DNA of 29,106 nucleotides from an uncultured Gammaproteobacteria bacterium (GCA_964636795.1 CAZWSS010000001.1:1-29106); one strand, 5' to 3'. Positions 52-25,966 are shown, counted from the first letter of the stretch. Numbers and translations are program-made. The notes: generated from the sequence alone by a model not told the origin.

Positions 52-83
52 ACGCCGCCCGGGGAGAAGCCCGCGGGCGGCGT
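52..83 (-). terminator. Putative intrinsic terminator of orphan gene 100-507
   Basis: Perfect 9-bp stem ACGCCGCCC/GGGCGGCGT, followed on the minus strand by TTCATATT, just downstream of the stop at 100. Confidence 0.5.
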
Positions 84-99
84 GGTGGAAGGTGAATGA

Positions 100-507
100 T
101 CAGGGACGGGAGTGGTGCTTCCAGACCGCGTGCGGCCAACCGCACTGCCAGTCCTTGAGCGCGAGCGCCTGCTCGCGCCGGGGCAGTTGGCTCACCTGCT
201 CTGCGGAGATCCGCAGCTGCCGGCGCAGCTCGTCGCGCCGCTCCAGGCGCACCGCGATGGCGGCGTTGCGTCCCGACGGCGCAGTGCAGGCCGCTCCCAT
301 GTTCTCCAACACCCGTTGGATCTCTTCGAAGACGGCCTTGTTGACTATCTGTGCCTCGGTGGGCACCGTCATGACGACGGTGCCGTTGGACGTCGCCCGT
401 GCGATGGCCTCGGCCCTGTCGTCGCACGAGCTGGTCACCACCAGCCCGCACAGGACCACCCAGAGGATCGTACCGACGACCCACTCAAACAGATCTCGAA
501 CTATCAT
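100..507 (-). CDS. Orphan membrane-anchored/lipoprotein-like protein (135 aa, MIVRDLFEW...)
   Basis: Start re-picked at ATG 507 with GGAGG 4 nt upstream. Hydrophobic N-terminal stretch ends in TSSC. GC-rich third positions. No recognisable family. Confidence 0.7.
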   Translation of the reverse strand: MIVRDLFEWVVGTILWVVLCGLVVTSSCDDRAEAIARATSNGTVVMTVPTEAQIVNKAVFEEIQRVLENMGAACTAPSGRNAAIAVRLERRDELRRQLRISAEQVSQLPRREQALALKDWQCGWPHAVWKHHSRP

Positions 508-557
508 ATCCCCTCCGGGGGTGGACTGGATGGATTCCAGTCCGAAAAGACAAGGAC

Positions 558-587
558 TGCATATCAAAAAAACGACGCGCCTGTCAA
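558..587 (-). promoter_or_regulatory. sigma70-type promoter of orphan 100-507
   Basis: Minus strand TTGACA-ggcgcgtcgtttttttga(18)-TATGCA; the -10 is imperfect. Confidence 0.5.
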
Positions 588-606
588 CCGCAACACGCGC
601 TGCATG

Positions 607-615
607 TGGTAGAAT
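607..615 (+). promoter_or_regulatory. Extended -10 promoter, leaderless geometry
   Basis: TGgTAGAAT, 6 nt before ATG 622; no SD. Confidence 0.6.
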
Positions 616-621
616 AGCGCC

Positions 622-981
622 ATGAAACGTAGCGAAGGCGAGCCAAAAGGAGAGCATTCAGCACCACTCGCGCAAGAGGTTGAAAGACCTTTCGTGGAGG
701 CGGAATTGTTTGCCGTTGAACATGGGGCGGACACCGTGGAGGTGGATCTGCACGGGATGGACTCATGGGATGCGCGGCAGGAATGTGAGCGGGCGATTGA
801 CGCGGCGTTTTACGCGGGAGATCGCGGTGTTCGCATTGTGCACGGCATTGGGAGCGGTGCCTTGCGCACGTTGGTTCGAAAACAGATTCTGCGTAGTCAT
901 CCGCTCGTTGAATCCTGGCGCCCGGCGGACTTCCCTCATGCCGCCAGCACGGTGATTGTGCTCATCCGGCATCGTACGTAG
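622..981 (+). CDS. Stand-alone Smr/MutS2 C-terminal domain protein
   Basis: VDLHGM and VRIVHGIGSGALR motifs typical of Smr domains. Confidence 0.9.
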   Translation: MKRSEGEPKGEHSAPLAQEVERPFVEAELFAVEHGADTVEVDLHGMDSWDARQECERAIDAAFYAGDRGVRIVHGIGSGALRTLVRKQILRSHPLVESWRPADFPHAASTVIVLIRHRT

Positions 982-1075
982 GGACATGCGCCCGGATGAT
1001 ACCGGCCAACAAGATGCCCGATGGCACTGCGATGTTTTCTCGGCGGTGAGGAACAAGCGTATTTGAAAATAATGC

Positions 1076-1102
1076 GCCGCCCATCCCACGAGGAAGGGCG
1101 GC
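1076..1102 (-). terminator. Putative intrinsic terminator of orphan 1119-1328
   Basis: Stem GCCGCCC/GGGCGGC followed by GCATTATTTTC on the minus strand; same stem sequence as the 52-83 hairpin. Confidence 0.5.
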
Positions 1103-1118
1103 AGGTTGAAGGGGCTGA

Positions 1119-1328
1119 CTAGGTGGGCGAGAAGGTCTGGACGCCGTCATCTTCGACGGCATAGTCCTCACCCACCATGGCGACGCGCACATGGCGTCGC
1201 CCACTCGACAGCGCCTCAGCGATCGTGCGGAGCGCGTGCATTGGGGACATCCCCATTGTCCCCGTGAGGAGCTCGTATGCTGCGTCGAAGCGCAGCACCA
1301 TCAATCTCTCTCGCAGCATGGGTTCCAT
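1119..1328 (-). CDS. Small orphan protein (69 aa, MEPMLRERL...)
   Basis: GGAGG 5 nt before ATG 1328. Fills the gap between smr and the LCP gene and has its own promoter and terminator-like elements. Confidence 0.6.
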   Translation of the reverse strand: MEPMLRERLMVLRFDAAYELLTGTMGMSPMHALRTIAEALSSGRRHVRVAMVGEDYAVEDDGVQTFSPT

Positions 1329-1369
1329 GGCTCCCTCCATCGGATCGCAACGGCGATCCTTTGCAATCG

Positions 1370-1398
1370 CTCTTATCATACGGGAGCATCTATGTCAA
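1370..1398 (-). promoter_or_regulatory. Promoter of orphan 1119-1328
   Basis: Minus strand TTGACA-tagatgctcccgtatga(17)-TAAGAG. Confidence 0.45.
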
Positions 1399-1423
1399 CG
1401 CAACGCCATGCTACAATACGGCC

Positions 1424-2827
1424 ATGAAGGCGGTGCGCTATTTTTATCGGGTTTCGGTTCTTGCCGCTGCCACAGCCCTTTTGGTGGTGGCGGTTTTTTC
1501 GCGTGCATGCACGGAGGCGGGATGCGTAGAACCTGGTGCGTGGCGGCTGCCCTCGGCGCTTGACCGTATCAACGCGGCCACGAAGCCGGTGGTGCTGCCT
1601 GACAAGGTGACAATCTTGGTGGCGGGAGTGGATGCGCGCAGCGGCAGCAAAACCATGCATTGTGATGCCATCCATGTGGTCAATCTCAACATTGCCGATG
1701 ATCGCGTAGAGTTTGTCAACATTCCCCGCGGCACCTACACCTACATTCCCATGCCCGACGGCTGGCAGCCCCGCGAGGAGCTTGTTGCGGCTGTAACAGC
1801 ACAACATCAGGCGCCTCCGCCACCGATTGATCCAAACGCATCTCCTGCGGAACTATTGACGGCCCCCGCGCCCGAATCCCCGATTGACCCCGCACCCCCG
1901 ACGCCACCAGCTCCCCTTACGCCCCAAGAAATCACCGCTCGCGCGTGGAGCATGGAGCAGTACCTCTCCAATGTTTGTGATTATGTCGGGTTCAACATGT
2001 TCGTGGATCGCGTGGAGGATATCGCGCGTGTACAGGTGGACTACACGGTGCGTGTGGGGTTCTCCCAGGCCGAAGGAATGTTGCGTGCGTTGCAGTTTGA
2101 TCCGACTGTCACATTGCAATTCTTGCGCCACAGGAAAACCTATGGCCTTGGCGATGTGCAGCGCAGCTATAATCAGTCGCTGTTCTTGGAGGATCTTTTG
2201 CGCAATCAAGCCGACCGCGTCGCTGGACTTCCCGTGACGGCGCAGGCGGCGCTCTACCACCTGATGGATACCGACATTCCTTACGGCACCGCGCGGGCGC
2301 TGCTTGATTGGGTGGTAGCAAGCCCGGCGCGCACGAAAGAGGGGAGGGTTACACATCGTACGGCGCCGTCTTGGACGCCCCGCGCGCAAGAAATGCGATT
2401 TGATGCCGAACATCCTGGAGAGCAGGTAGAGGCGCTTTACGCTCGGCTCAAGCACTATGACCCGTCGTTCACTCCCAAAGATGTCCAGCCTACCCTCCGA
2501 CGTTACATGGATGAGCAGCTGACGGCGGTATACGCCGCGTTGATCGCGGGCAATCTTGCCAGTGCACGAGAAGCCATTGGCCCTGTGGTAGATCAACAAC
2601 TGTGGCATCAAATTGAGGATGCCGAGGTGCGCGAAGAGATGATGGTGGCGGTGGCAATCTTGGAGAGTACGCTCACGTGGTTTGAGTTACACGACATGCA
2701 AATGGCGCTCACGGGAGCCACGTCAATGATATGGAATCTTGAGCTTTCGGAAGGGTCGCCTGAGGCCATGCATACGATCCAAGAGCACTTGGAGCAACTC
2801 CTTCGCCCACGCGCGGCCCTGCGTTGA
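1424..2827 (+). CDS. LytR-CpsA-Psr (LCP) family protein, divergent, with Pro-rich insertion (467 aa)
   Basis: N-terminal TM/signal; ILVAGVDAR, DAIHVV, FVNIPRGT, FLRHRK and GDVQR resemble LCP motifs. Start re-picked at 1424 (TGcTACAAT-6 nt-ATG). Confidence 0.75.
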   Translation: MKAVRYFYRVSVLAAATALLVVAVFSRACTEAGCVEPGAWRLPSALDRINAATKPVVLPDKVTILVAGVDARSGSKTMHCDAIHVVNLNIADDRVEFVNIPRGTYTYIPMPDGWQPREELVAAVTAQHQAPPPPIDPNASPAELLTAPAPESPIDPAPPTPPAPLTPQEITARAWSMEQYLSNVCDYVGFNMFVDRVEDIARVQVDYTVRVGFSQAEGMLRALQFDPTVTLQFLRHRKTYGLGDVQRSYNQSLFLEDLLRNQADRVAGLPVTAQAALYHLMDTDIPYGTARALLDWVVASPARTKEGRVTHRTAPSWTPRAQEMRFDAEHPGEQVEALYARLKHYDPSFTPKDVQPTLRRYMDEQLTAVYAALIAGNLASAREAIGPVVDQQLWHQIEDAEVREEMMVAVAILESTLTWFELHDMQMALTGATSMIWNLELSEGSPEAMHTIQEHLEQLLRPRAALR

Positions 2828-2859
2828 GCTTGACGGTACTCTGCGCCCGTGTATCTGCA

Positions 2860-2868
2860 TGTGGATAA
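2860..2868 (-). promoter_or_regulatory. Perfect DnaA box
   Basis: TGTGGATAA (reverse complement of TTATCCACA), intergenic, upstream of hup. Confidence 0.55.
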
Positions 2869-2927
2869 ACACTGGCGTTTTTCTGGGGCTGTGCCATACT
2901 TTCCTCGAAATTCGTAATGTAACCATT

Positions 2928-3212
2928 ATGGCAAAGGGACTTTCCAAGTCACAGTTTGTCGCGGCCTTGAGTGAAGCTCTCGGTGTCTCTAAGAAGGACG
3001 CCAGCTCGATGTACGACAAGTTTGTCGGCCTCGTGTACAAGGAAGTGAAGGCCAAGGGAGAGTTGATGCTTCCAGGGCTTGGCAAGTTGGTCAAGCAAAA
3101 CAGAGCGGCTCGCATGGGTCGCAATCCGGCCACCGGTGCGCAGATCCAAATTGCCGCCAAGACCGTGGTGAAGTTCCGCGTCAACAAGGCCGCCAAGGAA
3201 GCGATCTTGTAA
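2928..3212 (+). CDS. hup: HU family DNA-binding protein (94 aa)
   Basis: MAKGLSKSQFVAAL...LPGLGKLVKQNRAARMGRNPATG...KTVVKFRV is the HU/IHF signature. Start re-picked at 2928. Confidence 0.95.
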   Translation: MAKGLSKSQFVAALSEALGVSKKDASSMYDKFVGLVYKEVKAKGELMLPGLGKLVKQNRAARMGRNPATGAQIQIAAKTVVKFRVNKAAKEAIL

Positions 3213-3220
3213 GCAAGCTT

Positions 3221-3248
3221 CAAAACCTCGCTTCATGGCGAGGTTTTG
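3221..3248 (+). terminator. Intrinsic terminator after hup
   Basis: CAAAACCTCGC-ttcatg-GCGAGGTTTTG, 11-bp stem followed by GTTTGT. Confidence 0.85.
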
Positions 3249-3252
3249 GTTT

Positions 3253-3341
3253 GTATTCTAGTATTCGCGTATGTATGTATCGCGTATCGGATCTCGCGGG
3301 CTCCATACTCGAATACGCGATACGAGAATACTTGAATACTC
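3253..3341. repeat. Inverted array of 7-8 nt GTAT/ATAC units
   Basis: Left arm gtattcta gtattcgc gtat gtat gtatcgc gtatcgg; right arm catactc gaatacgc gatacga gaatactt gaatactc. Confidence 0.75.
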
Positions 3342-3359
3342 CTCTGGTATACTCCTGGA

Positions 3360-3689
3360 ATGAAGATCCACTTTGCCAAACCCTTGCCACTCATTCCCGA
3401 GCAGTTGTTACGCCGGGCGAGTTATGCGCCTCACTATGATCGTGTCACAGGGAATACTAGCTACACGCATAAAGTGACGTATGCCTTTTATCCGCGCTAC
3501 CACTGTTATGTGAGTGAGACCGACAAGGTGGTGACGTTTGACTTTCACTTGGATCAAAAGGAAGCCAGCTACGCCGGCTCGCATATGCACTCGGGAGAGT
3601 ATGAGGGGCCAACGATTGAGCGCGAAGTGGCGCGAGTCAAGGAGGAGTTTCGATCGGCCGCCCGATCGGCTGCCTCCCCGGACAGTTGA
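3360..3689 (+). CDS. Conserved hypothetical protein (109 aa)
   Basis: Clean ORF with TGgTATACT-6 nt-ATG. FYPRYHCYV...FHLDQK...HSGEYEG resembles a CPR hypothetical family (from recall). Confidence 0.85.
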   Translation: MKIHFAKPLPLIPEQLLRRASYAPHYDRVTGNTSYTHKVTYAFYPRYHCYVSETDKVVTFDFHLDQKEASYAGSHMHSGEYEGPTIEREVARVKEEFRSAARSAASPDS

Positions 3690-3714
3690 CGCGGCCACAG
3701 ATTTCATATAGATT
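3686..3714 (+). promoter_or_regulatory. sigma70 promoter of the small basic ORF
   Basis: TTGACG(3686-3691)-17 nt-TAGATT(3709-3714). Confidence 0.7.
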
Positions 3715-3771
3715 ATGCCCATTCTCGGCACCCACAATACTTTCTCCTTTCACCCTTTCCATTTCTCTCTT

Positions 3772-3882
3772 ATGTCCCGCAAGCGCAAAAACCCATCCAC
3801 GGGTCTCAAGTTGCCAAAGCTCAAGCGCGTCACGCACAAGATGAAGCGCAGTACCATTCGCACCGGCAAGCATCGCGTATAA
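3772..3882 (+). CDS. Unannotated 36-aa highly basic protein MSRKRKNPSTGLKLPKLKRVTHKMKRSTIRTGKHRV
   Basis: Translated by hand (below the ORF-track cutoff). 14 K/R, no D/E. Lies between a consensus promoter and an intrinsic terminator. Confidence 0.75.
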   Translation: MSRKRKNPSTGLKLPKLKRVTHKMKRSTIRTGKHRV

Positions 3883-3900
3883 ACCGCCTCGGCGGTTTTT
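3881..3900 (+). terminator. Intrinsic terminator after the small basic ORF
   Basis: AAACCGC-ctcg-GCGGTTT followed by TTACTTTT. Confidence 0.8.
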
Positions 3901-3931
3901 ACTTTTGGTGGGATGACGTATACTGCTCGGT

Positions 3932-5656
3932 ATGCTAAGACGACTGTATCCCGTTTTGTTCAGCGTGGCGATGGTCGCTTTCATGTTAGCGCCTCTGTTG
4001 ACGGTGCAGGCGCAAGGTTGGTTGGATCAATCTGTAGCGACCATAGAAACACTACGATCGATACGGATGTTTGATGGGATACACGGGATGGTTGTGGGCG
4101 ACAACGGCATCACGTACTACACCACGAACGGGCAGATGTGGACACTCGGTGCTACGGCTACCGGTAAGGATCTGCATGCACTGTCTTTTGGATCGAGCGC
4201 AACCGTGGCCTTTGCGGTGGGCGATAGTGGCACGATCCGCAAGACCACGAACGGTGGCATTTCGTGGAGTTTGCTTTCGGCCCCGGTCAGTGGCGATATT
4301 TTTGGTGTAGACATGGTTTCCGATACTCTCGGATGGGTGGTCGGTTCTCTCGGCCATGTTTTTAAAACGACGGATGGACTTGCATGGAGTTCACAAACCT
4401 CCGGTGTGGGAAAGAAGCTTTACGATGTAGAAGCGATCAGTGCGCAGATGGCGTGGTTTGTGGGGGATTTTGGGCTGGTGTCCAAGACCATTGATGGAGG
4501 CGCCACCTGGGTTGCGCAGACCTCTGGCGTAACGGATGCGTTGCTTGCGGTCGAGTTTGTCAATGCACAGGTAGGGTATATTGCAGGTGAGAATCGAACG
4601 TTTTTACGCACAACGAACAGTGGGGCGACATGGACGCCCGTGGTCATCAACGCCATCGTTGCCGGAACGTCCATCACCGATATGACGTTTTTTTCCCAGG
4701 CAGAGGGGGTCATGGTGGAAGCCAATGGGCAGGTACTGGAGACAAGTGACAGCGGGCTTACATGGAGCGTCGTGTCAGATACGCCGATGGGCATCTATGC
4801 GAGTGTGGACGCTGTCGGCGCCGATGCCGCGGTGGCTGGCGGCAACGGGCGACTTTCACGATTAGATGCCACGGCGCCGTCACGGCCGGGAGGGCTCACA
4901 TGGGCGACATCGAGCTCGGATACAACCCCAACATTTACGTGGACAGCCGCGACGGACACCATCAGCGAGATGGATCGGTACGAGGTTTCGTTTGACGCGG
5001 GCGCAACGCTCATCCATGTAGGGACGGCGTTGAGTTACACATCCATTGCTCTTGCGGATGGCGACTACACAGTATGGGTGCGCGCGATAGATGCGGCGGA
5101 GAATGCGAGTGCATTTGCGTTGAAGAATTTTACGATTGACGCTGTGCCGGAACCTGAACCTGAACCGGAACCTCCGTCCAGTCTCGCGCCCGGAACACGT
5201 ATCAAAACTGCCTGTCCGGGTGGGGAAGGTGTGAACCATCCTTGTCGAGCCGTGTACTACTACAGCGCCGCGGGGACGCGTCATGCCTTTTCCAATGCCA
5301 AGGTGTATTTTTCGTGGTATGAGAATTTTGATGACGTGATGATTGTCAATGAAGCGACGATGGCTTCGTTTGCGATCGGGCGCAACATTACGTATCGCCC
5401 CGGCATCAAGATGGTGAAGTTTCAAACGCTAGCGACGGTTTATGTGGTGGAACGTGGTGGAGTATTGCGGCCGGTGAATTCCGAGGCCACGGCGGCCGCG
5501 TTGTATGGTCACAACTGGAACCAGCAAATTGACGATATCTCGGATGCATTTTTCACCAATTATAGTTTTGGCGATCCGGTATCCGGGTTGAGTGATTACA
5601 ATCCTGCCGCTGCCGCTTTCTTGACCCCCACCATTTCTGTCGATCTTGCCGGTTGA
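3932..5656 (+). CDS. Secreted/surface protein: BNR/YCF48-like beta-propeller repeats, Ig/Fn3-like module, PE linker, C-terminal domain
   Basis: Signal peptide; repeated KTTNGG.SW / KTIDGGATW / RTTNSGATW Asp-boxes; PTFTW...YTVWVRAIDAAEN; PEPEPEPEP linker. TATACT-7 nt-ATG. Confidence 0.85.
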   Translation: MLRRLYPVLFSVAMVAFMLAPLLTVQAQGWLDQSVATIETLRSIRMFDGIHGMVVGDNGITYYTTNGQMWTLGATATGKDLHALSFGSSATVAFAVGDSGTIRKTTNGGISWSLLSAPVSGDIFGVDMVSDTLGWVVGSLGHVFKTTDGLAWSSQTSGVGKKLYDVEAISAQMAWFVGDFGLVSKTIDGGATWVAQTSGVTDALLAVEFVNAQVGYIAGENRTFLRTTNSGATWTPVVINAIVAGTSITDMTFFSQAEGVMVEANGQVLETSDSGLTWSVVSDTPMGIYASVDAVGADAAVAGGNGRLSRLDATAPSRPGGLTWATSSSDTTPTFTWTAATDTISEMDRYEVSFDAGATLIHVGTALSYTSIALADGDYTVWVRAIDAAENASAFALKNFTIDAVPEPEPEPEPPSSLAPGTRIKTACPGGEGVNHPCRAVYYYSAAGTRHAFSNAKVYFSWYENFDDVMIVNEATMASFAIGRNITYRPGIKMVKFQTLATVYVVERGGVLRPVNSEATAAALYGHNWNQQIDDISDAFFTNYSFGDPVSGLSDYNPAAAAFLTPTISVDLAG

Positions 5657-5679
5657 TGGCAAGGGGGACTAGGTTTGGT

Positions 5680-5688
5680 TGTGGATAA
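5680..5688 (-). promoter_or_regulatory. Perfect DnaA box
   Basis: TGTGGATAA, intergenic. Confidence 0.5.
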
Positions 5689-5694
5689 ATGCAA

Positions 5695-5719
5695 ACGCCA
5701 CCTGGGAGCCAGGTGGCGT
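5695..5719 (-). terminator. Putative terminator of orphan 5750-6310
   Basis: Perfect 11-bp stem ACGCCACCTGG/CCAGGTGGCGT, followed on the minus strand by TTGCATTT. Confidence 0.65.
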
Positions 5720-5749
5720 CGTGCGTGTTTGGGTTCCCGCGTCTGACCG

Positions 5750-6310: not shown

Positions 6311-6321
6311 GACTAACCTTT

Positions 6322-18307: not shown

Positions 18308-21300
18308 ATGTCCACCACCTCTCAACGCACACAGGACTTGGCCGCCGGTTCGGCGGATGCGGTCTGGGCTTATATGACCAGTGTGAAGTCCGTCAAAAAA
18401 GCCAAGGGTCATGAGGAGCCATTTTCCAAAGAGAAGTTGTACAGGTCCATCCAGGCCGCCGTGCAAGAGTCGGGGCTCAAGGATGGCTCGGCTCTGCGCT
18501 ACAGTGAGCGCATGACCGGGCAGGTCATGACGCGGCTGAACGTAGTCTACGATGGGGTGGTGGTACCCACCACAGGTGACATGCGTGAGGTGGTCTCCAT
18601 GACCATGATTGACAACAATCTATCGTTTGTGGCGCGTAAGTACATGGGCTACAAGCAAAAGTTGCTCCCCATCCACCGCGATCAGCCCCACTATGGCCAC
18701 GGCATCTCCGTGAGGCGCTATTACACTGCCGTCGGTGTGCATCCTTATAGTCAGATTGAGTGGGGTCGGCGCACGGCGTGGATCAAGGACGAGAAGGGGC
18801 GCGCGATTTTTGAACAGCATGACGTGGAAGTCCCTGCGTTTTGGTCGCAGACAGCTACCAACATTGTGGTCTCCAAGTATTTCAAGGGGAAGGTCGGCGA
18901 TCCCAACCGAGAGACCAGTGCGCGCCAGTTGATTGACCGTGTCGCTCAAACCATCGCCAGCTTTGGTCGCCACGATGGTTACTTCCAGTCGGTCGAGGAC
19001 GCCGATGTCTTTGAAGCCGAGCTCACCCACATCCTCATCAACCAAATGGCGGCCTTCAACAGCCCTGTGTGGTTCAACGTGGGCGTCAACCCGCATCCGC
19101 AGTGCTCGGCCTGCTTCATCAACTCGGTGCAAGACGACATGCGCTCCATCATGAACCTTGCCACCACCGAGTCCATGCTTTTTAAGTACGGCTCGGGCAC
19201 AGGTTCCAATCTCTCCAACCTTCGTGGTTCCTGCGAATACTTGGCCAACTCCAACGGCAAGTCCTCGGGCGTGGTGAGTTTCATGAAGGGTTGGGATAGC
19301 TTTGCGGGTATTGTCAAATCCGGCGGCAAGACGCGCCGTGCAGCCAAGATGGTGATTTTGAATGTGGACCACCCGGATGTGATGGAGTTTATCGAGTGCA
19401 AGATGAAGGAAGAGAAAAAGGCATGGGCGCTCATTGAAGCGGGCTACGATGGGTCGTTCACCGGCGAGGCCTACGGATCGATCTTCTTCCAAAACGCCAA
19501 CAACAGCGTGCGCGTCACGGATGCTTTTATGCGCACGGTAGAGGCAGACGGGGAGTTTTCAACGATCGAACGGCTCACGGGGAAGGTGGCAGAGACCCAT
19601 AAGGCACGCGAGCTCATGCGGCGCATGGCCGAGTGCGCGTGGTGGTGCGGCGACCCGGGGGTGCAGTACCACGATACCGCCAACCGGTGGCATACCTGCA
19701 AGGCCACCGACGAGATCCACGCCTCCAACCCATGCGCCGAGTACATGTTTTTAGACGACACGGCCTGCAACCTCTCCTCCATCAACCTGCTGCGCTTCCG
19801 CACGGGGGAGAACGGCGAACGCTTTGATGTGGAAAGCTTCAAGCAAACCTGTGAGGTGATGATCACGGCCATGGAAATCTTGGTGGGCAACTGCAGCTAT
19901 CCCACGCCCTCGATCGAGCAAAACACCTATGACTACCGCCCGCTCGGGATCGGCTATGCCAACTTGGGCGCACTGCTGATGAGCCGCGGATTGCCATACG
20001 ACTCGGATGCCGGACGAAATTTGGCGGCGGCTATCACATCCTTAATGAGTGGTCACACGTACTACCAAAGCGCCAAGATTGCCGAGAAGATGGGTCCGTT
20101 CGCGGGCTACGAGCGCAACCGTGAGTCATGTTTGGGCGTGATGCGTATGCACCGCGAGGCGTCGTATCAGATTCCCGGGGAAGGGGTGCCGCAAGACCTC
20201 ATGACCGCTGCGCGAGAGAGTTGGGATCACACGGTGGAGCACGGTTCGCGCCATGGACTGCGCAACGCACAGATCAGTGTGCTGGCACCCACGGGCACCA
20301 TCTCGTTTTTGATGGACTGCGCAACAACCGGCGTTGAGCCCGACATTGCGCTCGTCAAGTACAAATGGATGGTGGACGGGGGCATGGAGAAGATGGTCAA
20401 CGGCACGGTGCCCGATGCTCTGCGATTTCTTGGGTATACACAGGGACAGGTTGATGCGATCGTGGCCTCTATCGCTGAACACGATACCATCGAGGGCGCG
20501 CCCGATCTTAAGGCCGAGCATCTCTCTGTGTTTGACTGCGCCTTCAAGGCGGCTAAGGGTACGCGATCCATCCACTACATGGGCCATGTGCGCATGATGG
20601 CGGCGGTGCAGCCGTTCCTCTCGGGAGCCATCTCCAAGACGGTCAACATGCCCGAGAACGCTACGGTGGAGGACATTGAGGAAGTGTTTTTGAAGGGATG
20701 GCACATGGGGTTGAAGGCGATCGCGATTTATCGCGACGGTTCCAAGCGACAGCAACCTGTCACCACCTCGATTGCCCAAAAGGAAAAAGGAGCCAAGGCT
20801 GTGGGGACAGGACTCGACGCTAAAGACGAGCCGGCGGCGGAGGCGATCAAGGAACGGGTGATCATAAAGGAGGTTGCGGCGCCACGACGACGACGCCTCC
20901 CCGACGAGCGACGATCGATCACACATAAGTTCTCGATTGGTGGCCATAAGGGCTACCTCACCGTGGGGCTCTATGACGATGGTACGCCAGGAGAGGTCTT
21001 TGTGATGATGAACAAGGAAGGATCGGTGATTTCCGGGTTGGTCAACGCGCTTGCAGCAACCACCTCCATCGCTTTGCAGTATGGAGTGCCCTTGCAGGCG
21101 TTGGTTAACAAGTTTGCGCACATGCGCTTTGAACCCTCGGGATTTACCAACAACCCTAACATCAAAATTGCCAAGTCCATTGTGGACTATATTTTCCGCT
21201 GGATGGCGCTCAAGTTCTTGGATCCTGTTGCGCAAAAGCAACTTGGTGTTAACCTGGATACGCCCGATCACTTGGCTGAGATCAACGAACGTTCCAAGGA

Positions 21301-21535
21301 AGAGATGGTACTCGATCGCGATCTGCCCGATGCGCCGCAGCCGACGATCTTTGATCAGCCCAAGGTCGCTGCAACAACCGCGGGGTCGTTACCCACACCC
21401 GCCAAAGCGTCCTTGACCTCGACCTTCGACAATCAATCCGACGCGCCCGCTTGCGGCACTTGCGGCTCGATCATGGTTCGCAACGCCGCTTGCTACAAGT
21501 GTTTGAACTGCGGCAGCACGAGCGGGTGTAGTTAG
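18308..21535 (+). CDS. nrdJ: Class II (AdoCbl-dependent) ribonucleotide reductase with N-terminal ATP-cone and C-terminal TSCPD/Zn-ribbon
   Basis: FNSPVWFN, QCSACFI, NPCAEY, APTGTISF, GAISKTVN, YRDGSK and terminal CxxC...CxxC motifs. Confidence 0.95.
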   Translation: MSTTSQRTQDLAAGSADAVWAYMTSVKSVKKAKGHEEPFSKEKLYRSIQAAVQESGLKDGSALRYSERMTGQVMTRLNVVYDGVVVPTTGDMREVVSMTMIDNNLSFVARKYMGYKQKLLPIHRDQPHYGHGISVRRYYTAVGVHPYSQIEWGRRTAWIKDEKGRAIFEQHDVEVPAFWSQTATNIVVSKYFKGKVGDPNRETSARQLIDRVAQTIASFGRHDGYFQSVEDADVFEAELTHILINQMAAFNSPVWFNVGVNPHPQCSACFINSVQDDMRSIMNLATTESMLFKYGSGTGSNLSNLRGSCEYLANSNGKSSGVVSFMKGWDSFAGIVKSGGKTRRAAKMVILNVDHPDVMEFIECKMKEEKKAWALIEAGYDGSFTGEAYGSIFFQNANNSVRVTDAFMRTVEADGEFSTIERLTGKVAETHKARELMRRMAECAWWCGDPGVQYHDTANRWHTCKATDEIHASNPCAEYMFLDDTACNLSSINLLRFRTGENGERFDVESFKQTCEVMITAMEILVGNCSYPTPSIEQNTYDYRPLGIGYANLGALLMSRGLPYDSDAGRNLAAAITSLMSGHTYYQSAKIAEKMGPFAGYERNRESCLGVMRMHREASYQIPGEGVPQDLMTAARESWDHTVEHGSRHGLRNAQISVLAPTGTISFLMDCATTGVEPDIALVKYKWMVDGGMEKMVNGTVPDALRFLGYTQGQVDAIVASIAEHDTIEGAPDLKAEHLSVFDCAFKAAKGTRSIHYMGHVRMMAAVQPFLSGAISKTVNMPENATVEDIEEVFLKGWHMGLKAIAIYRDGSKRQQPVTTSIAQKEKGAKAVGTGLDAKDEPAAEAIKERVIIKEVAAPRRRRLPDERRSITHKFSIGGHKGYLTVGLYDDGTPGEVFVMMNKEGSVISGLVNALAATTSIALQYGVPLQALVNKFAHMRFEPSGFTNNPNIKIAKSIVDYIFRWMALKFLDPVAQKQLGVNLDTPDHLAEINERSKEEMVLDRDLPDAPQPTIFDQPKVAATTAGSLPTPAKASLTSTFDNQSDAPACGTCGSIMVRNAACYKCLNCGSTSGCS

Positions 21536-22326
21536 GATTGGGGAGACCGCGCCGTGTGAACCATGGAGCGGTCAAAGTACGACGGTTCGTCCGGAGCGGC
21601 AAAGAAAACGATCGCCCACCGTGCGGCATCCGGGCGGAACGCGTCCTCGGTTCTTTGCACAACGTCGTGCCACGAGGCGGGAAAATCGCCATGGGTCTTT
21701 TGCTCCATGAACAGAGCAGGGAAAAAGATGGCTTTGCCAGGGGTGTGTGTTACCTCGCGGACGTCTTCCGGTTGGTGGCCGATACGCAGCCCCGGTCCGC
21801 TTTCCGCAATGGCAAGCGAGCACCCGCCTCGATCATAGTGACCTTTTGCAAGGAATTGCCCCACTGGCGCTCGGTCGTACTTCAAAAAGCGCAGGACGCT
21901 TCGGGAAGAAAAAAGGTTTGCAATGGCGGGGTAGACCGGCTCAAGGACGTTCAAGACGTTGACCGCGGCTTGGCAAGCGGCGTGGTAAATGGGTTGGGCT
22001 GCGTCAAGCAATGCCTTGAGTTCCGGTGGAGCTTCCGGGTGGTTCCGGAAACGACTGAGGAGCTCTGCGTTGTAATGAAAGAATTCTTTGTCATCGTAGC
22101 CGAAGCCGGTAACGGATTGCCGTTGCCAGTAGCCAATCTCCGTTCCGCGCTCCGTCTCGTTGACCTTCAAGTGAAGCGCCCACTTCAACTTTTTGCCTTC
22201 AGGAAGGGCGAGAAAGTCAAAGTACGCCTCTGCAGCCCGCTTGATCTGTGTGAGCGGGACATCAAACGGAACCTCGTGATATCCTTTTTCCGCGATGTTT
22301 TCCTGAAGCTGTCTGACAGTGATCAT
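21532..22326 (-). CDS. 2OG-Fe(II) oxygenase (IPNS-like fold, 264 aa)
   Basis: LRFLKY, HYD (HxD), WH and RWAIVFF motifs. Start re-picked at 22326 (TGcTATCGT-7 nt-ATG). Confidence 0.8.
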   Translation of the reverse strand: MITVRQLQENIAEKGYHEVPFDVPLTQIKRAAEAYFDFLALPEGKKLKWALHLKVNETERGTEIGYWQRQSVTGFGYDDKEFFHYNAELLSRFRNHPEAPPELKALLDAAQPIYHAACQAAVNVLNVLEPVYPAIANLFSSRSVLRFLKYDRAPVGQFLAKGHYDRGGCSLAIAESGPGLRIGHQPEDVREVTHTPGKAIFFPALFMEQKTHGDFPASWHDVVQRTEDAFRPDAARWAIVFFAAPDEPSYFDRSMVHTARSPQS

Positions 22327-22419
22327 GCTCGCTACGATAGCAAAGTGGCTCGAATCTGACGAACGCCCACTCTTACCAATCACAAGAACGTGTACGTACG
22401 TCATTTGTGTGATCGCTCT

Positions 22420-23016
22420 ATGCCCACCCCATTCATTGATCGTCCCACAACGCCCGAGCTGGATGTACGCATCAAGGGGCGGCAGGGGTTGGGATTGGTG
22501 CAGTTGTTTGAAGGGCATGGGAAGGGCAAGACCACGGCGGCCATTGGTTCGATCGTTCGAATGGTGGGGGCGGGGAAGCGCGCGGCGATGATCTATTTTG
22601 ACAAGGGCGGAGATCACTACAGCGAGCGTGCCGTGTTTGATCGTCTTGGCGGGGACTGGTTTGCTTTCGGACGCGATCGGATTGATCCCATCACAGGACG
22701 CTTTGATTTCTCCGTGACGGAAGAAGACCGAGAGCTTGGAGCGCGCGCCATCGAGAAAATGCATGAGCTGTTCCTCTTGGACCTCTACGACCTCTTGGTC
22801 TTAGATGAAGTTAACTCCAGCTGTGCACTTGGGTTTGTGAGCGAGGCGGCGGTTCTTGAGCTGCTCGACTGTAAGCCTGACCGTCTTGAGCTGATTTTGA
22901 CAGGACGCAATGCGCCGGAGTTCTTTAGACAGCGCGCCCACTTGGTGACCGAGATGCAATTGGTGAAGCACTATTTTTACTCGGGGGTGAAAGCGCGTGC
23001 TGGCGTGGATTTCTAG
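22420..23016 (+). CDS. btuR: Cob(I)alamin adenosyltransferase, CobA/BtuR/CobO type
   Basis: GHGKGKTTAAIG P-loop, YDLLVLDEV, ELILTGR and VTEMQLVKH motifs. Confidence 0.92.
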   Translation: MPTPFIDRPTTPELDVRIKGRQGLGLVQLFEGHGKGKTTAAIGSIVRMVGAGKRAAMIYFDKGGDHYSERAVFDRLGGDWFAFGRDRIDPITGRFDFSVTEEDRELGARAIEKMHELFLLDLYDLLVLDEVNSSCALGFVSEAAVLELLDCKPDRLELILTGRNAPEFFRQRAHLVTEMQLVKHYFYSGVKARAGVDF

Positions 23017-23018
23017 CC

Positions 23019-23088
23019 GTCATTGCGAGGAGTGTAGCGACGAAGTAATCTTCACTCGCATAGATTGCTTCGCTTTGCTCGCAATGAC
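23019..23088. repeat. 70-bp palindromic element GTCATTGCGAG...CTCGCAATGAC
   Basis: Perfect 11-bp terminal inverted repeats plus inner gaagtaatc/gattgcttc arms; resembles a widespread non-autonomous REP/MITE-like element (from recall). Confidence 0.75.
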
Positions 23089-23119
23089 TTTTTCGGAGGA
23101 GTCCTGCTATACTTCCGGC

Positions 23120-23389
23120 ATGCCCAAACAAAAACTCACCTACGCTGAGCTCGACCATGACGTGCAGGCGCTCCAAACGACGCTCCAACGTATGCGCCGC
23201 GTGGGCGGCTTCACGGTGATCCAACGCCCGGGGCGATTCCTGTGGTTTCAGTTTCTCACGGGCATCATCCGCGGACTCGGGTCTGCCGTGGGAGCCGGAG
23301 TGATCTTGGCCGTGCTGCTCTACGTGGTGCACAAGTTGCCGTTTGTTCAACGCATCATTGACCTCATCAATAATCTGCCAACGCTTTAG
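23120..23389 (+). CDS. Small membrane protein, DUF5665-like (89 aa)
   Basis: FLWFQFLTGIIRGLGSAVGAGVIL hydrophobic motif; TGcTATACT-6 nt-ATG. Confidence 0.75.
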   Translation: MPKQKLTYAELDHDVQALQTTLQRMRRVGGFTVIQRPGRFLWFQFLTGIIRGLGSAVGAGVILAVLLYVVHKLPFVQRIIDLINNLPTL

Positions 23390-23416
23390 GGATAACAATC
23401 GCGGTCACGGAGTAGC

Positions 23417-23485
23417 TATTGGCTTCTGGCGATTGGCTATTTGCTTGACCGCCCTTCAAAAAGCTAAAAGCTAATCGCTAAAAGC
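23417..23485. repeat. Inverted heptamer array (nnTTGGC / nAAAAGC type)
   Basis: tattggc ttctggc gattggc tatttgc ... aaaaagc taaaagc taatcgc taaaagc. Confidence 0.75.
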
Positions 23486-23490
23486 GCCCC

Positions 23491-23523
23491 AAAACAAACA
23501 CCCCCGCCGGAAGCCGGAGGGGG
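23491..23523 (-). terminator. Intrinsic terminator of orphan 23603-25756
   Basis: Minus strand CCCCCtCCGG-ctt-CCGGcGGGGG followed by TGTTTGTTTT. Confidence 0.7.
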
Positions 23524-23602
23524 CGCATTCGTTTTTGGGTGAGAGGAGCTTGTGCCCGGCCTGGCGTGCATTGCGCGCGCCATGGCTTGTGGCCGGGTTG
23601 GC

Positions 23603-25756
23603 TCACTCTCCTTCGGACTCCTGGGAGTCCGGTGCCGGGGGAGCGGCGACTTCCCCCGTCTCCACCACGACCAGTTGCTTTCGCAACCAGTCGGGCTGGG
23701 CGGCGAGCCGGGTCTGGGCCTCGGCGAGGATGGCGGGGCCGAAGACCCGCTTCCACACCACGGCCAGGATCCGCTCCGCGAGCTCGGTGGTCAGCTCCTG
23801 TGGCTTTCCATCGAGCATCATCTGCCGCCCCATAGAGAGGAACACCGAGGCGACCACCTGCAGGATGCCCCACAGGGAGTTGCTCTCGATCTTCGTCGGG
23901 GGGGAGGCGCGGTGGTGCAGGGACCGCGCCATCAGGTTGACGGCCTTCCCGTCGGCGATGTGGAGGTACCACACGCCGTCGGCCGCCTTGCCACCGTGCA
24001 TCAGGTCGGTGGGGTCCTCGGGCACCCTCCGTTCCTGGTGCATGTACTCGAGGGCTCGCGCGAAGGCCGCGAACCACCTGTACATCAGGTCCGTCCGCAC
24101 GCCGCCGAGGCGGCGCTGGTCGGTCCCGAAGTAGCAGGCCCCGATGGCGTTGGTGGTGATGCAGCAGGCCCCGATGGCCTGGCTCCGCACCACGGGGGCG
24201 AGTTGTGGATTGCAGCTGTCGGCCATGAAGACCGACGGCTTGCCCTTCTCGTCCCCGTCCACTCCCCAGGTCACCGCGATCTTCTCGCGGCGCCCGGCCT
24301 GCACCTCCACCGTGACGGCCAAGTCACGGAGGTCCTCCATCCCCCACCATGCCCGCAGAGCCATGCGAGCGTACTCCCGAGCGGTCCCTTCGGGCAGCTT
24401 CAGGAGCAGCCCGCGCCGGTCATCGGCCCCGTTCACCACCGTCTGCTCACGCACCAGTAGGGCACGCAGCGTGTTGTGGATCCCGTAGGGGGAGCGAGGG
24501 GACCGCTCGTCCAGCCACTCGCGCCCCTTGAGGACGGCGCGCGTGTCCTTTTCGCCCTCGAGGCGGCTCTTGAACCGGCCATTGCCGGTGTTCAAGAACT
24601 CTCCCAGGCCGGCGATGGCCTGGTCGACCGCCTTCACCTCGTCGGCCTCCTCGAGCACCGTCTTCCGGTGCTCCTTCAGCCGCTCCAGGTAGGCCGGGAG
24701 CGGCTCGCCGACGTTCATCTTCAGCGGCCGCTTGGTGCCCTTGCGGGCGAACCAGCGCTCCGCCGCCCAGCGGGCCGCTTCGGCCCAGGGAACGGGGTTC
24801 CCCATGTCGATGAGGTGCTGGTGGAGGGTCTCGACCTTCTTCACCAGCCGGGAGGGGTAGCCCGGCTCCTTGCCATTTTTCTCCCCCTTTTCCCACGCCG
24901 CCACCATCTTGGCGTACTCCGCCTCGATGTGGTCCAGGATGTCCTGGAAGCTCCGGGCCCCCGCGGGCTTCCAGAGCCGGCTCACCACGTTGTCCGGGGC
25001 GGACAACAGCCACTCCACCATCACCTGCTCCACCTTCTTGTCCACGCCCTGGGGCGGGGAGAAGGGGAGGAAGGTGTAGGTGGTCAACAGCACCTGCGTC
25101 CAGAACAAATCCTTTCGGACCGCGTCCTGGCCATAGGGCATCTCCACGATGCGGTCGTCCACTCGCTGGTAGACCGCCGCCCGCCCCGTCTGCTTGACCA
25201 CCCAGCTCCACCCCATCTGCATCGCCGTGGGGGTGGAGTCCTTGACGTCGATGTAGGTAAGGGCGTTGACCAGCCCCTGGTACAGGTGGGCGTGCTGCTT
25301 CTCCGGCACCCCGACGCTCGTGAAGAGCGCCCGCAGGCGCCCCACGAACTCGTCGTGGGAGAGGCCGGCCTTGGCCGCCGCCATGGTGGCGGACGTGGTG
25401 CCGTTGCCGCCCTCCTCTCCGTCTCGCTCCCCGTGCTCGTCGTACGGGTTCCAGGTTCCGTCCCCGGGGGTCCACCCCAGGAACAGCCACTTGGCACCCC
25501 CGATTTCGGGGTCGCCTTCCTCGAACAGTCTCCGCGCCAGCCCGGCGTTGCCGGACTTGCGGAAGATGTCGTTGTTTCCGCAGACCGTAACGGTATGCGG
25601 GTTGAAGACCACCAGACGCAGGAGCAGCAGCAAAATTGCTGCCACCAGCTCATCCGGGTGCGGGCGGGCGCCCGACTCCTCGCCCCCTCCGTGGAAGGAG
25701 AGGACCCCCACGTTGATGGGAGCGGGGGCGGCGGACCCGGTGTTGTTGTCGTTCAC
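23603..25756 (-). CDS. Large GC-rich orphan (717 aa), possibly a divergent MYG1/DHH-like phosphoesterase
   Basis: GTG start with GAGGT 5 nt upstream. N-terminal HPDELVAAILL, LFLG...YDEH, SAT and YIDVKD segments echo the MYG1/DHH motif order. GC 45/60 in sample line 23701-23760 versus 35/60 in host sample 4081-4140. Confidence 0.8.
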   Translation of the reverse strand: MNDNNTGSAAPAPINVGVLSFHGGGEESGARPHPDELVAAILLLLLRLVVFNPHTVTVCGNNDIFRKSGNAGLARRLFEEGDPEIGGAKWLFLGWTPGDGTWNPYDEHGERDGEEGGNGTTSATMAAAKAGLSHDEFVGRLRALFTSVGVPEKQHAHLYQGLVNALTYIDVKDSTPTAMQMGWSWVVKQTGRAAVYQRVDDRIVEMPYGQDAVRKDLFWTQVLLTTYTFLPFSPPQGVDKKVEQVMVEWLLSAPDNVVSRLWKPAGARSFQDILDHIEAEYAKMVAAWEKGEKNGKEPGYPSRLVKKVETLHQHLIDMGNPVPWAEAARWAAERWFARKGTKRPLKMNVGEPLPAYLERLKEHRKTVLEEADEVKAVDQAIAGLGEFLNTGNGRFKSRLEGEKDTRAVLKGREWLDERSPRSPYGIHNTLRALLVREQTVVNGADDRRGLLLKLPEGTAREYARMALRAWWGMEDLRDLAVTVEVQAGRREKIAVTWGVDGDEKGKPSVFMADSCNPQLAPVVRSQAIGACCITTNAIGACYFGTDQRRLGGVRTDLMYRWFAAFARALEYMHQERRVPEDPTDLMHGGKAADGVWYLHIADGKAVNLMARSLHHRASPPTKIESNSLWGILQVVASVFLSMGRQMMLDGKPQELTTELAERILAVVWKRVFGPAILAEAQTRLAAQPDWLRKQLVVVETGEVAAPPAPDSQESEGE

Positions 25757-25826
25757 GATGAACCTCGATTCTGTGTTTGTCGCCCGAGGGGAATCCTTGG
25801 GCGTGGGTTGTAAGGGGCCTGTTCGC

Positions 25827-25899
25827 TTTTGGCAAATGGCTCATGGCTATTGGCTCGGATCCGCAAGAAGCGAAAAGCCAACAGCGAAAAGCAAAAAGC
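25827..25899. repeat. Inverted heptamer array (nnnTGGC / nAAAAGC type)
   Basis: ttttggc aaatggc tcatggc tattggc ... gaaaagc caacagc gaaaagc aaaaagc. Confidence 0.75.
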
Positions 25900-25937
25900 C
25901 ATAAATGTCGGTGGTTTTCAGGCACACCGAACGGCGC

Positions 25938-25966
25938 AAGATAACAAGAAAACGGCCGTTTGTCAA
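25938..25966 (-). promoter_or_regulatory. sigma70 promoter of orphan 23603-25756
   Basis: Minus strand TTGACA-aacggccgttttcttgt(17)-TATCTT. Confidence 0.7.

Follow-up and report, generated by a model that had tools for sequence, protein, structure and literature searches.

A candidate class of self-contained, GC3-rich one-gene transcription units in a groundwater Uhrbacteria-like genome

Introduction

Four open reading frames (ORFs) inserted singly between housekeeping genes, all on the minus strand, occur in a 29,106-nt stretch of DNA, here called the window, from a 0.74-Mb groundwater Uhrbacteria-like genome (G000). Each has its own predicted promoter, 5′ leader, Shine-Dalgarno (SD)-like site and terminator. 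This raises the question of what such genes have in common and how they came to be arranged in this way. The original prediction regarded them as four orphans with a promoter design of their own, forming either a regulon or the product of a capture system which delivers unrelated ORFs with a standard module. Here we describe the four units (A to D), compare them with the remainder of the genome and with related genomes, in particular a sister genome of the same genus (G001) and a further relative (G002), and weigh the explanations which have been or might be proposed for them.

Results

Four self-contained units

The units and their parts are listed in Table 1. Their neighbours are cell-wall, RNR, HU and methylase genes with a third-position GC content (GC3) of 0.60–0.75; the four ORFs have values of 0.79–0.92 versus a genome median of 0.71. 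By codon log-likelihood (0.14–0.35 per codon), all four frames look coding and every alternative frame scores lower (≤0.06). The promoters, leader hairpins, SD-like sites and terminator hairpins are all located where they had been predicted and the hairpins do fold, with energy z scores versus shuffled sequences of −2.1, −2.0, −3.5 and −3.3 (leaders of A, B, C and D) and −5.2, −2.7, −2.9 and −2.0 (terminators, same order). The GCCGCCC...GGGCGGC stem, correctly noted as common to the terminators of A and B, has only these two copies in the whole genome.

Table 1. Features of the four units and of one native neighbouring gene
Unit	Feature	Positions	Strand	Characteristics
A	unit	52–587	−	−35 TTGACA 587–582; 18-nt spacer ending TTTTTTTGA; −10 TATGCA 563–558
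A	leader and CDS	523–543 (hairpin); 100–507 (CDS)	−	8-bp hairpin; GGAGG SD; 135 aa, N-terminal membrane helix; GC3 0.86
A	terminator hairpin	52–83	−	
B	unit	1076–1398	−	−35 1398–1393; 17-nt spacer; −10 TAAGAG 1375–1370
B	leader and CDS	1342–1359 (hairpin); 1119–1328 (CDS)	−	7-bp hairpin; GGAGG SD; 69 aa; GC3 0.79
B	terminator	1076–1102	−	GCCGCCC stem as in A
C	unit	5691–6435	−	−35 6435–6430; spacer AAAGGCCATTTTTTTGA; −10 TATAAG 6412–6407
C	leader	6322–6358 (twin hairpins)	−	90 nt, structured; both loops UGCGU; weak SD
C	CDS	5750–6310	−	186 aa, membrane helix then coiled coil; GC3 0.91
C	terminator	5691–5724	−	
D	unit	23500–25966	−	−35 25966–25961; spacer AACGGCCGTTTTCTTGT; −10 TATCTT 25943–25938
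D	leader	25827–25899 (heptad-repeat array)	−	~175 nt; GAGGT SD
D	CDS	23603–25756	−	717 aa; GC3 0.92; DHH-like fold with helical insert
D	terminator	23500–23524	−	
	Smr gene, native layout	607–624	+	extended −10 TGgTAGAAT 607–615, 6 nt before ATG 622; leaderless, no SD, no −35; back to back with the unit A promoter

Orphan status stands for three of the genes, the ORFs of A, B and C having no homologue in 12 relatives, but not for the unit D ORF, homologues of which were found in 5 of 8 other family genomes searched. Both G001 and G002 carry a TTGACA-N17-TA promoter at the place of unit B, divergent from LytR, and in G001 an unrelated small ORF lies downstream of it. Unit C is absent from both genomes, where the gap between hyp109 and MurD measures 655 and ~300 nt, respectively.

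The promoter is of general use

All four units have a perfect TTGACA (6/6), followed by spacers of 18, 17, 17 and 17 nt (A to D) ending in TGA, TGA, TGA and TGT, so that TG is present in each. The −10 hexamers all begin with TA, and only that of unit D has the final T. A sigma-70 consensus scan called none of the three window promoter sites within its range. The 13/17 identity claimed between two of the spacers is real and rare, with values of at least 13 in only 4 of 1653 spacer pairs from perfect-TTGACA sites (random expectation ~1e-5 per pair), and the tail TTTTTTTGA is indeed common to the promoters at 582 and 6430.

Contrary to what had been supposed, the design is not particular to these cassettes. 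TTGACA is not over-represented in the genome (315 observed versus 316 expected). Among its 104 intergenic occurrences, TA is found at +23/+24 in 59, T at +28 in 51 and G at +21 in 48, a signal which is absent from coding occurrences. TTGACA-N17-TAnnnT is found upstream of seven tRNA genes and of infB (IF-2), relA, typA (BipA), lysS, rpsL (S12), rpsF (S6), rpoB and gdh, and spacers of the type found in the units also precede tRNA-Arg, tRNA-Cys, rpsL and SpoIID. In 49 species, both natural and strong sigma-70 promoters are reported to have a spacer composed of A/T-tract, GC, A/T-tract and G-rich regions, a pattern which by itself raises promoter strength (PMC12641261). The present promoters resemble these in their TTGACA, 17-bp spacer, TG two bases before the −10, TAnnnT and four-region spacer composition. 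They differ from the general case in that the full predicted design is concentrated here on a small accessory class together with tRNA and ribosomal-protein genes. Their likeness probably reflects convergence on a strong-promoter optimum, also used by tRNA, ribosomal-protein and rpoB genes, and, in some cases, the copying of whole units from one another.

According to a genome-wide census, many other genes use a leaderless layout with a −10 alone. The contrast drawn with leaderless host genes was borne out in the window, where TGnTAnnnT occurs 5–8 nt before the ATG of eight neighbours: Smr, LytR (codon 50), hyp109, BNR, hyp465, hyp528, PBP (codon 62) and the second Mur ligase.

A genome-wide class

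Genes were called with a home-made ORF and codon scorer and the counts given here are approximate. Across G000, 14 promoters combine a perfect −35 with a T-rich spacer, and 10 of them lie upstream of genes with GC3 ≥ 0.84 (2 × 2 table 10, 14; 4, 613; Fisher odds ratio 109, p = 6e-13; with paralogues collapsed 8, 12; 4, 613, p = 9e-11). In G001, the corresponding table for GC3 ≥ 0.70 and a perfect promoter is 20, 14; 44, 668 (odds ratio 22, p = 1e-14), and the association holds across thresholds and after collapsing paralogues. Class genes also differ in their other signals: an SD signature is found in 18 of 21 versus 36% of the remaining genes (p = 7e-6), a leaderless signature in 2 of 21 versus 32%, and a terminator in 12 of 21 versus 34%. 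A perfect promoter went undetected in 11 of 24. The class is restricted in distribution, since only 29% of its genes have a G001 homologue versus 76–92% of ordinary genes, and only 18% of the G001 class genes (GC3 ≥ 0.70) have one in G000.

On balance, we consider it probable that the four window ORFs belong to a genome-wide class of autonomous one-gene transcription units, ~20–25 in G000 and ~34 in the sister species, whose shared promoter is the organism's general strong promoter and not a dedicated delivery module, and which are gained, lost and exchanged in the manner of phage morons. Each unit would combine a near-optimal housekeeping-sigma promoter (perfect TTGACA, a 17-bp spacer made of A-tract, GC core, T-tract and TG, and TAnnnT) with a structured 5′ leader including an SD site, a coding region of GC3 ~0.8–0.95 and an intrinsic terminator. 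The promoters are predicted to fire and to be strong, and the units are probably highly expressed. Among the members are several envelope or cell-wall-lytic proteins, an observation that would at least fit a role in host interaction.

Turnover from promoter to terminator

Comparison of sequences indicates that the entity which evolves is the unit from promoter to terminator, which is gained, lost, duplicated, moved and exchanged as such. Homology between class paralogues is confined to the stretch between −35 and terminator, and one member is chimeric. Empty syntenic sites, which the original prediction had proposed to look for in relatives, were seen in G001 (64 versus 906 nt and 411 versus 718 nt), where the SLT unit lies at a different locus. 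Unit D is 90–97% identical between the species of G001 and G002 (93% for the unit) from the −35 to ~130 nt past the stop codon versus 69–85% in the flanks, with a proportion of synonymous differences (pS) of 0.14 versus 0.71–0.78. Such excess identity is evident in unit D and slight in one other unit (87%), and it is absent from two further class genes. The units probably represent the flexible, fast-turnover fraction of the genome; a few of them, unit D for instance, keep a fixed position.

No ORF in the window has an integrase or recombinase domain, the junction repeats which it had been proposed to look for were not seen at the two insertions inspected, and no attachment sites were found, the aligned paralogue units sharing nothing beyond the −35 and the terminator. 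The viral contigs searched contained no relatives.

Unit D and its product

Unit D occupies the same locus beside ftsI, together with its promoter, in seven genomes, in which its GC3 is 0.82–0.92 and that of neighbouring genes 0.44–0.72. Vertical conservation at the same loci, there with unrelated upstream sequences, had been named in the original prediction as evidence against it; for this gene, inheritance at one fixed locus with its promoter does count against the prediction. Among 1.84 billion proteins only 13 clusters are related to the ORF; three of these were followed on six contigs, all of which show the same ftsI-flanked locus.

The protein has no match among Pfam and PDB sequences. 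Its structural model (pLDDT 83, pTM 0.83) points to a two-lobed DHH + DHHA1 fold. DHH-family proteins account for 16 of its 17 top structural matches, with moderate Z scores of 4.6–8.5 over 222–299 aligned residues spanning positions 10–640; these include PggH (Z 8.5, 269 residues aligned), PAP phosphatase (Z 8.0) and RecJ (Z 6.8). Like the DHH/DHHA1 phosphoesterases (NrnA/PggH, PAP phosphatase, RecJ, Cdc45, GdpP), the protein has the predicted fold. Invariant or near-invariant His and Asp residues lie close to its N-terminus, with a DEH triplet at 106–108. H22, H33, D35 and D173 are invariant and D106-E107-H108 nearly so, but the canonical DHH triplet is absent and, unlike these enzymes, the protein carries a helical insert of ~350 residues between its two lobes.

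Discussion

The observations could be read as gene capture or horizontal import, in which genes of foreign origin, drawn from a GC-rich donor or a mobile pool and equipped with their own promoter, SD and terminator, were inserted between housekeeping genes. The empty sites and relocation in the sister genome, the apparent exchange of unit D between the G001 and G002 lineages, the restricted distribution of the class, expression signals unlike those of leaderless native genes and a codon usage identical in hosts of 57% and 49% GC are all consistent with this. We nevertheless consider it unlikely. Protein identity of unit D, at its one locus in seven genomes, falls to 22–33% in more distant family members while its GC3 is still 0.82–0.92, which argues that this composition is maintained and is not the fading signature of an import. 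The lack of recombination functions in the window, of junction repeats at the two insertions and of relatives on viral contigs, together with the few, ftsI-flanked relatives of unit D among known proteins, also speaks against import, as do the T-tract promoters which, from their sequence, would also drive native tRNA and rpsL genes.

Slightly less likely still is a dedicated regulon, whose regulator or alternative sigma factor would recognize the spacer (AAAGGCC-N-TTTTTTTGA) or palindromes centred on the −35 and co-activate the class. Similarity between spacers greatly exceeds chance and is clustered in ~15 promoters, the spacer style is kept at orthologous promoters in six other genomes, and several units have their −35 in the loop of a short hairpin (GCCTT-GACAA-AAGGC, CCGTTT-GAC-AAACGG and a 9-bp stem at C45 4507, for example). 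The four-part spacer pattern, however, has been described for sigma-70 promoters at large and raises strength by itself, spacers of the class type also precede tRNA-Arg, tRNA-Cys, rpsL and SpoIID, and the −35 hairpins are not more stable than those at other promoters (mean −5.5 versus −4.4 kcal/mol). Moreover, no candidate regulator is common to G000 and G001, a sigma-r4/alpha-CTD fusion of G001 having no full-length G000 homologue. That nothing special is involved, and that four unrelated small genes have ordinary promoters, leaders and terminators by coincidence and base composition, would fit the expected frequency of TTGACA, the generic motif upstream of many core genes and the fact that a promoter, SD and terminator are textbook traits of any monocistronic gene. 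It is already disfavoured, and quite improbable, given that the GC3 outliers are tied to promoter type, SD leaders and restricted distribution, reproducibly in a second genome, and that the spacer identity and the unique common terminator stem exceed chance. What is supported of the original idea of a regulon or delivery system is a non-random, compositionally distinct, mostly species-restricted class whose units are exchanged; a class-specific promoter and a capture machinery are not supported.

The class of autonomous one-gene units favoured here has partial parallels elsewhere. Integron cassettes have no promoters, carry attC and require the IntI integrase and an attI site. The present units resemble them as unrelated single ORFs behaving as movable intergenic units, but each has its own promoter, no common recombination site was seen and no integrase lies nearby. 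Phage morons lie in prophage genomes as transcription units of their own (Cumby, Davidson and Maxwell 2012, PMC3594210). Like morons, the units are single genes with their own predicted promoter and terminator between conserved genes, differ in GC from their neighbours, are present or absent between related genomes and spread as a unit, although this does not apply to every member. Unlike morons, they reside in a cellular chromosome without phage context or viral relatives. Their GC excess is constant from host to host, and at least one of them has been fixed by vertical inheritance throughout a bacterial family.

The units retain their GC3 anomaly irrespective of the composition of the host genome. 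Class genes of G000 and G001 have the same codon use, with third positions of C 0.42–0.46, G 0.43–0.44 and A+T 0.09–0.15. High expression was considered as its cause and rejected, the G001 genes for S10, S2, S12, SecY, YidC and RpoB having a GC3 of 0.43–0.55, equal to the genome median. Our leading guess is that GC3 may be held high by GC-biased repair at recombination-prone loci or by selection on mRNA, and not by tRNA-matched codon adaptation. Bacterial GC-biased gene conversion leads to GC3 enrichment associated with recombination (Lassalle et al. 2015, PMC4450053). As in that study, GC enrichment at third positions here accompanies signs of recombination, and C- and G-ending codons both increase regardless of the tRNA set. 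In contrast to it, the effect is large (GC3 0.87 versus a genome median of 0.50) and confined to a few dozen stand-alone units.

A more far-reaching proposal, which we regard as rather unlikely, is that the units constitute a pool, shared across the genus, of expression modules which are exchangeable and self-sufficient and have a codon dialect of their own (GC3 ~0.9 in any host) and universally readable signals (a consensus sigma-70 promoter, SD and hairpin terminator), in a lineage with mostly leaderless genes. If true, something other than ordinary mutation bias would have to preserve both the dialect and the readable signals. This might be intense GC-biased repair, driven by recombination within the flexible genome, or, more boldly, selection for expression, either under a separate translation regime or inside the bacterium that serves as host to this presumed episymbiont.

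Four stand-alone units among leaderless genes

The window is the entire contig C1 of a 744-kb genome (G000; 92 contigs, 97% complete, 57% GC). The nearest proteins of its class II ribonucleotide reductase (RNR) belong to Candidatus Uhrbacteria and other Patescibacteria MAGs, and the stretch was found in 15 DNA sequencing runs from groundwater or soil and in no RNA run. CPR/Patescibacteria have tiny genomes in which a large share of the genes has no assigned function. The window carries many ORFs without a family, together with genes for cell wall proteins (LytR, MurD, a Mur ligase, a PBP), HU, SpoU, two glycosidases and the RNR. Genes of G000 and of its sister G001, from the same genus, were called with our own ORF and codon-score procedure; the full analysis is limited to these two genomes, and related genomes are non-independent samples.

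Four minus-strand single-gene units, A to D, had been described as sharing one layout, and their sequence features hold. The predicted promoters have a perfect TTGACA, spacers of 18, 17, 17 and 17 nt ending in TG(A/T) and a -10 starting with TA; leader hairpins and terminators fold (energy z against shuffles -2.0 to -5.2). The 13/17 identity reported for two spacers is one of only four pairs reaching at least 13 among 1653, and the only two copies of the GCCGCCC...GGGCGGC hairpin in the genome are the unit A and unit B terminators. The -10 hexamers of three of the four promoters lack the final T, and a consensus promoter scanner run on 1-20000 called none of the three sites in that range.

All four reading frames are the coding-like ones. 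A Pfam search with the four ORFs gave no match, ESM Atlas look-alikes of the 717-aa and 186-aa proteins provided no usable lead, and no homologues of the 135-, 69- and 186-aa ORFs were found among 12 relatives. The unit A and B proteins show no similarity to each other, nor does the unit B protein to its positional analogue in G001. The unit C leader (z -3.5 over its full 90 nt) includes two adjacent hairpins, with stems GGGAGG/CCTCCC and CTTGGGG/CCCCAAG and an identical UGCGU loop, directly upstream of a weak Shine-Dalgarno (SD) site.

The contrast drawn with leaderless neighbours also stands: many window genes carry TGnTAnnnT 5-8 nt before the ATG. Genome-wide, TAnnnT precedes an early start by 4-9 nt in 196 of 612 genes, compared with 2.1% of internal start codons; about one third of G000 genes have this layout. 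It moves several true starts downstream of the longest-ORF start, to codon 50 in LytR, 62 in PBP, 7 in hyp528 and approximately 64 in HU. Two expression architectures, leaderless with a -10 only and leadered with a full promoter, thus occur in one small genome.

Location of the features described
Feature	Location	Remark
Unit A	window 52-587	CDS 100-507, 135 aa
Unit B	window 1076-1398	CDS 1119-1328, 69 aa
Unit C	window 5691-6435	CDS 5750-6310, 186 aa
Unit D	window 23500-25966	CDS 23603-25756, 717 aa
Twin leader hairpins of unit C	window 6322-6358	
Rearranged region with the BNR/Ig-like gene and unit C	window 3932-6310	
Leaderless housekeeping layout	window 607-624, 1408-1426, 3346-3362, 3918-3934, 26074-26090, 28021-28037	and others
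Paralogous GC3-rich family	G000 C45 4507-5150, C61 2920-3603, C90 1095-1695, C7 ~8050-8850, C42 4478-5600	four to five members
Palindromic heptad elements	window 23411-23490, 25820-25900	~70-90 nt
Palindromic heptad elements	G000 C52 ~2170-2235, C55 293-358, C62 1238-1307, C65 3464-3552, C88 1247-1300, C71 180-210, C3 9908-9935	
Three GC-rich hairpins	G000 C36 5030-5170	after the terminator of an inserted unit
Sigma-70 region 4/alpha-CTD gene	G001 C10 260-1663	467 aa
Extra short unit	80% relative, L142 1310-1560	between ftsI and the unit D promoter

A general promoter and a GC3-rich class

The promoter design is not specific to the four units. TTGACA shows no overall excess in G000 (315 observed, 316 expected), and one third of its copies fall in non-coding DNA, which makes up about 15% of the genome. 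Because the non-coding copies, unlike those in coding DNA, are followed by G at +21, TA at +23/+24 and T at +28, TTGACA-N17-(TG)n-TAnnnT is, judged by its sequence, the housekeeping promoter of this organism. Perfect copies precede seven tRNA genes and the genes for IF-2, RelA/SpoT, BipA, S12, S6, RpoB, glutamate dehydrogenase and a class II aminoacyl-tRNA synthetase.

A first verdict that the units were entirely ordinary was nevertheless dropped once third-position GC (GC3) was considered. The median GC3 of G000 genes is 0.71 and only 24 of 641 reach 0.84; the ORFs of units A, B, C and D have values of 0.86, 0.79, 0.91 and 0.92. A promoter subclass with a spacer of roughly AAAGGCC-N-TTTTTTTG(A/G) coincides with this upper tail. 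Among genes behind a perfect -35 and a T-rich spacer, 10 of 14 have a GC3 of at least 0.84 (OR 109, p 6e-13), an association that survives both the collapsing of one paralogous family and other thresholds. Genes of this class have an SD signature in 18 of 21 cases, compared with 36% of other genes; relative to these, the leaderless signature is seldom found and a terminator is commoner. Only 29% have a homologue in G001, a complete genome, against 76-92% of ordinary genes. The SLT transglycosylase is the only Pfam family among those scanned, and about ten members, with N-termini judged by eye, have signal peptides, lipoboxes or membrane helices.

The same class appears in G001 (896 kb as rebuilt, median GC3 0.50). 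A perfect TTGACA-N16-18-TA promoter precedes 59% of its 34 genes with a GC3 of at least 0.70, compared with 4-6% of ordinary genes, and only 18% of the 34 have a G000 homologue. A Pfam scan of the seven highest-GC3 genes found no family for six of them; SLT, an M23 peptidase and two Ser/Thr kinases occur lower on the list. In one GC3-rich protein of G001 (locus L151), a sigma-70 region 4 is joined to an RNA polymerase alpha C-terminal domain; domains of these two kinds read -35 boxes and A/T-rich UP elements. A full-length homologue was not found in G000.

Duplication and turnover of whole units

Within G000, a family of GC3-rich paralogues, 155-229 aa long, 56-78% identical and without a Pfam family, shows what is duplicated. 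The members each have a separate promoter; their leader (cgtccgccaaggcaag...) is conserved and their terminators are almost identical. Five related units (on C45, C61, C90, C7 and C42) can be aligned only from the -35 through the terminator, their flanks being unrelated. The gene at C7 8093 is a chimera: its promoter and N-terminus are those of the C42 gene, its domain is of the C45 type. Empty sites exist in G001 for the units on C36 and C61, where the flanks are next to each other (64 nt in place of 906, and 411 nt in place of 718). In G001 the SLT unit is found at another locus, and different GC3-elevated genes occupy some of the slots. Unit C and a relocated BNR/Ig-like gene are missing between hyp109 and MurD in both G001 and a second sister, G002. 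In these sisters (loci L011 and L012) the BNR/Ig-like gene lies beyond the MurD-hyp465 pair, and unit C accompanies it in G000 only. The terminator of the inserted C36 unit is followed by three short hairpins that are built alike (CTCCCCC-taacgta-GGGGGAG and CCCGCCC-ttta-GGCGGG are two of them) and that the 64-nt empty site lacks.

Unit D: a shared locus and a probable recent exchange

Relatives of the unit D protein occur in five of the eight other family genomes searched, and in only 13 clusters among 1.84 billion representatives. A word-indexed protein search returned a single relative, at 80%; scans of genome contigs with the protein and of viral contigs with the family alignment gave no match. 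In every genome examined (G000, the contig with 80% identity, G001, G002 and three from more remote family members) the unit is divergent beside ftsI-murF, ahead of a DUF5665, CobA, NUDIX and RNR block, with a promoter in one common style, TTGACA-N17-TA(n)nTT, and a GC3 of 0.82-0.92, its neighbours having 0.44-0.72. This constancy rules out recent capture of unit D. Its synonymous sites must be saturated, since protein identity falls to 22-33% within the family; the high GC3 is hence under active maintenance.

Between G001 and G002 the unit is far more alike than its flanks: identity is 90-97% over a stretch that runs from the -35 to some 130 nt past the stop (pS 0.14), against 69-85% (pS 0.71-0.78) for the flanking genes. 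A recent exchange between the two lineages, involving the entire unit, is the likely cause. Between G000 and the 80% relative, divergence of unit and flanks is about equal. Exchange between G001 and G002 does not extend to the class as a whole; one other class gene shows a weak sign of it, a mild excess of identity.

A model of the protein built from a 12-sequence alignment is confident (pLDDT 83), and phosphoesterases of the DHH family account for 16 of the 17 structures that match it best (PggH, Z 8.5; PAP phosphatase, 8.0; then RecJ, Cdc45 and GdpP). His/Asp residues near the N-terminus are conserved in the alignment, which also shows a DEH triplet. A PDB-sequence profile search and Pfam on the 12 members found nothing significant at the sequence level, and Foldseek against the PDB alone was not significant.

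Heptad arrays (three to five GCTATTA/GCGATTA/GCTTTTA, a GC-rich spacer, then three to five GCCAATA/GCTAAAA) flank unit D, and several such elements directly adjoin -35 boxes. Both flanking arrays are kept in the 80% relative and absent from the G001 and G002 units; with this absence and their dispersal over at least nine sites, they were rejected as the ends of unit D. The 80% relative has an extra short unit with a separate TTGACA promoter, a 3' half that resembles a tRNA (GGTTCGATTCC...CCACCA) and a terminator T-run abutting the next -35. In the window, the long minus-strand ORFs of 21532-23398 (410 and 157 aa) score below the plus-strand ORFs 22390-23016 and 22997-23389; the latter matches the small G001 gene that in relatives adjoins the DUF5665 gene, on the downstream side of unit D. 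Of the two readings, that on the plus strand is probably correct.

Discussion

A dedicated regulon behind the shared promoters is possible but unlikely, since the data can be explained without one. In 49 species, natural and strong sigma-70 promoters have a four-region spacer (A/T-tract, GC, A/T-tract, G-rich with TG), and the spacer alone can shift promoter strength by hundreds of fold (PMC12641261). The likeness of the units' promoters stems from convergence on, or retention of, such a strong-promoter optimum and, where units are duplicates, from common descent. A T-tract and -35 hairpin acting as a built-in upstream terminator would suit some units, such as that with a 9-bp stem at C45 4507, but was rejected: mean stability does not differ from that at other promoters. 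Nor was an integron-like capture system adopted as the origin of the units, since no direct repeats were seen at two inspected insertion junctions and there is no recombinase among the window ORFs. We instead read the units as moron-like accessory units of the flexible genome that are probably highly expressed. Phage morons carry a promoter and a terminator of their own, deviate in GC content and spread as units (PMC3594210); the units described here share these properties but are part of a cell's chromosome and show no link to phages.

Codon adaptation to high expression was rejected as the cause of the high GC3, the ribosomal-protein, SecY, YidC and rpoB genes of G001 being at the genome median. 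In the class, C-ending and G-ending codons are raised alike for all amino acids, a bias that is not tRNA-specific. A gene-specific level of GC3 is constant across hosts of 48-59% GC, for which neither fading signatures of import nor expression-linked codon bias accounts; recombination-associated GC-biased repair and selection on mRNA properties are candidates for keeping it at about 0.9. It offers a case from uncultivated bacteria in which GC-biased gene conversion and selection on synonymous sites might be weighed against each other.

The combination of outlying GC3, consensus -35, T-tract spacer, SD leader and terminator marks flexible, lineage-specific genes in at least two species. This set includes wall-lytic enzymes (SLT, M23), secreted or membrane proteins and a family-specific DHH-like enzyme, and its genes would be the first candidates for a part in host or phage interactions.
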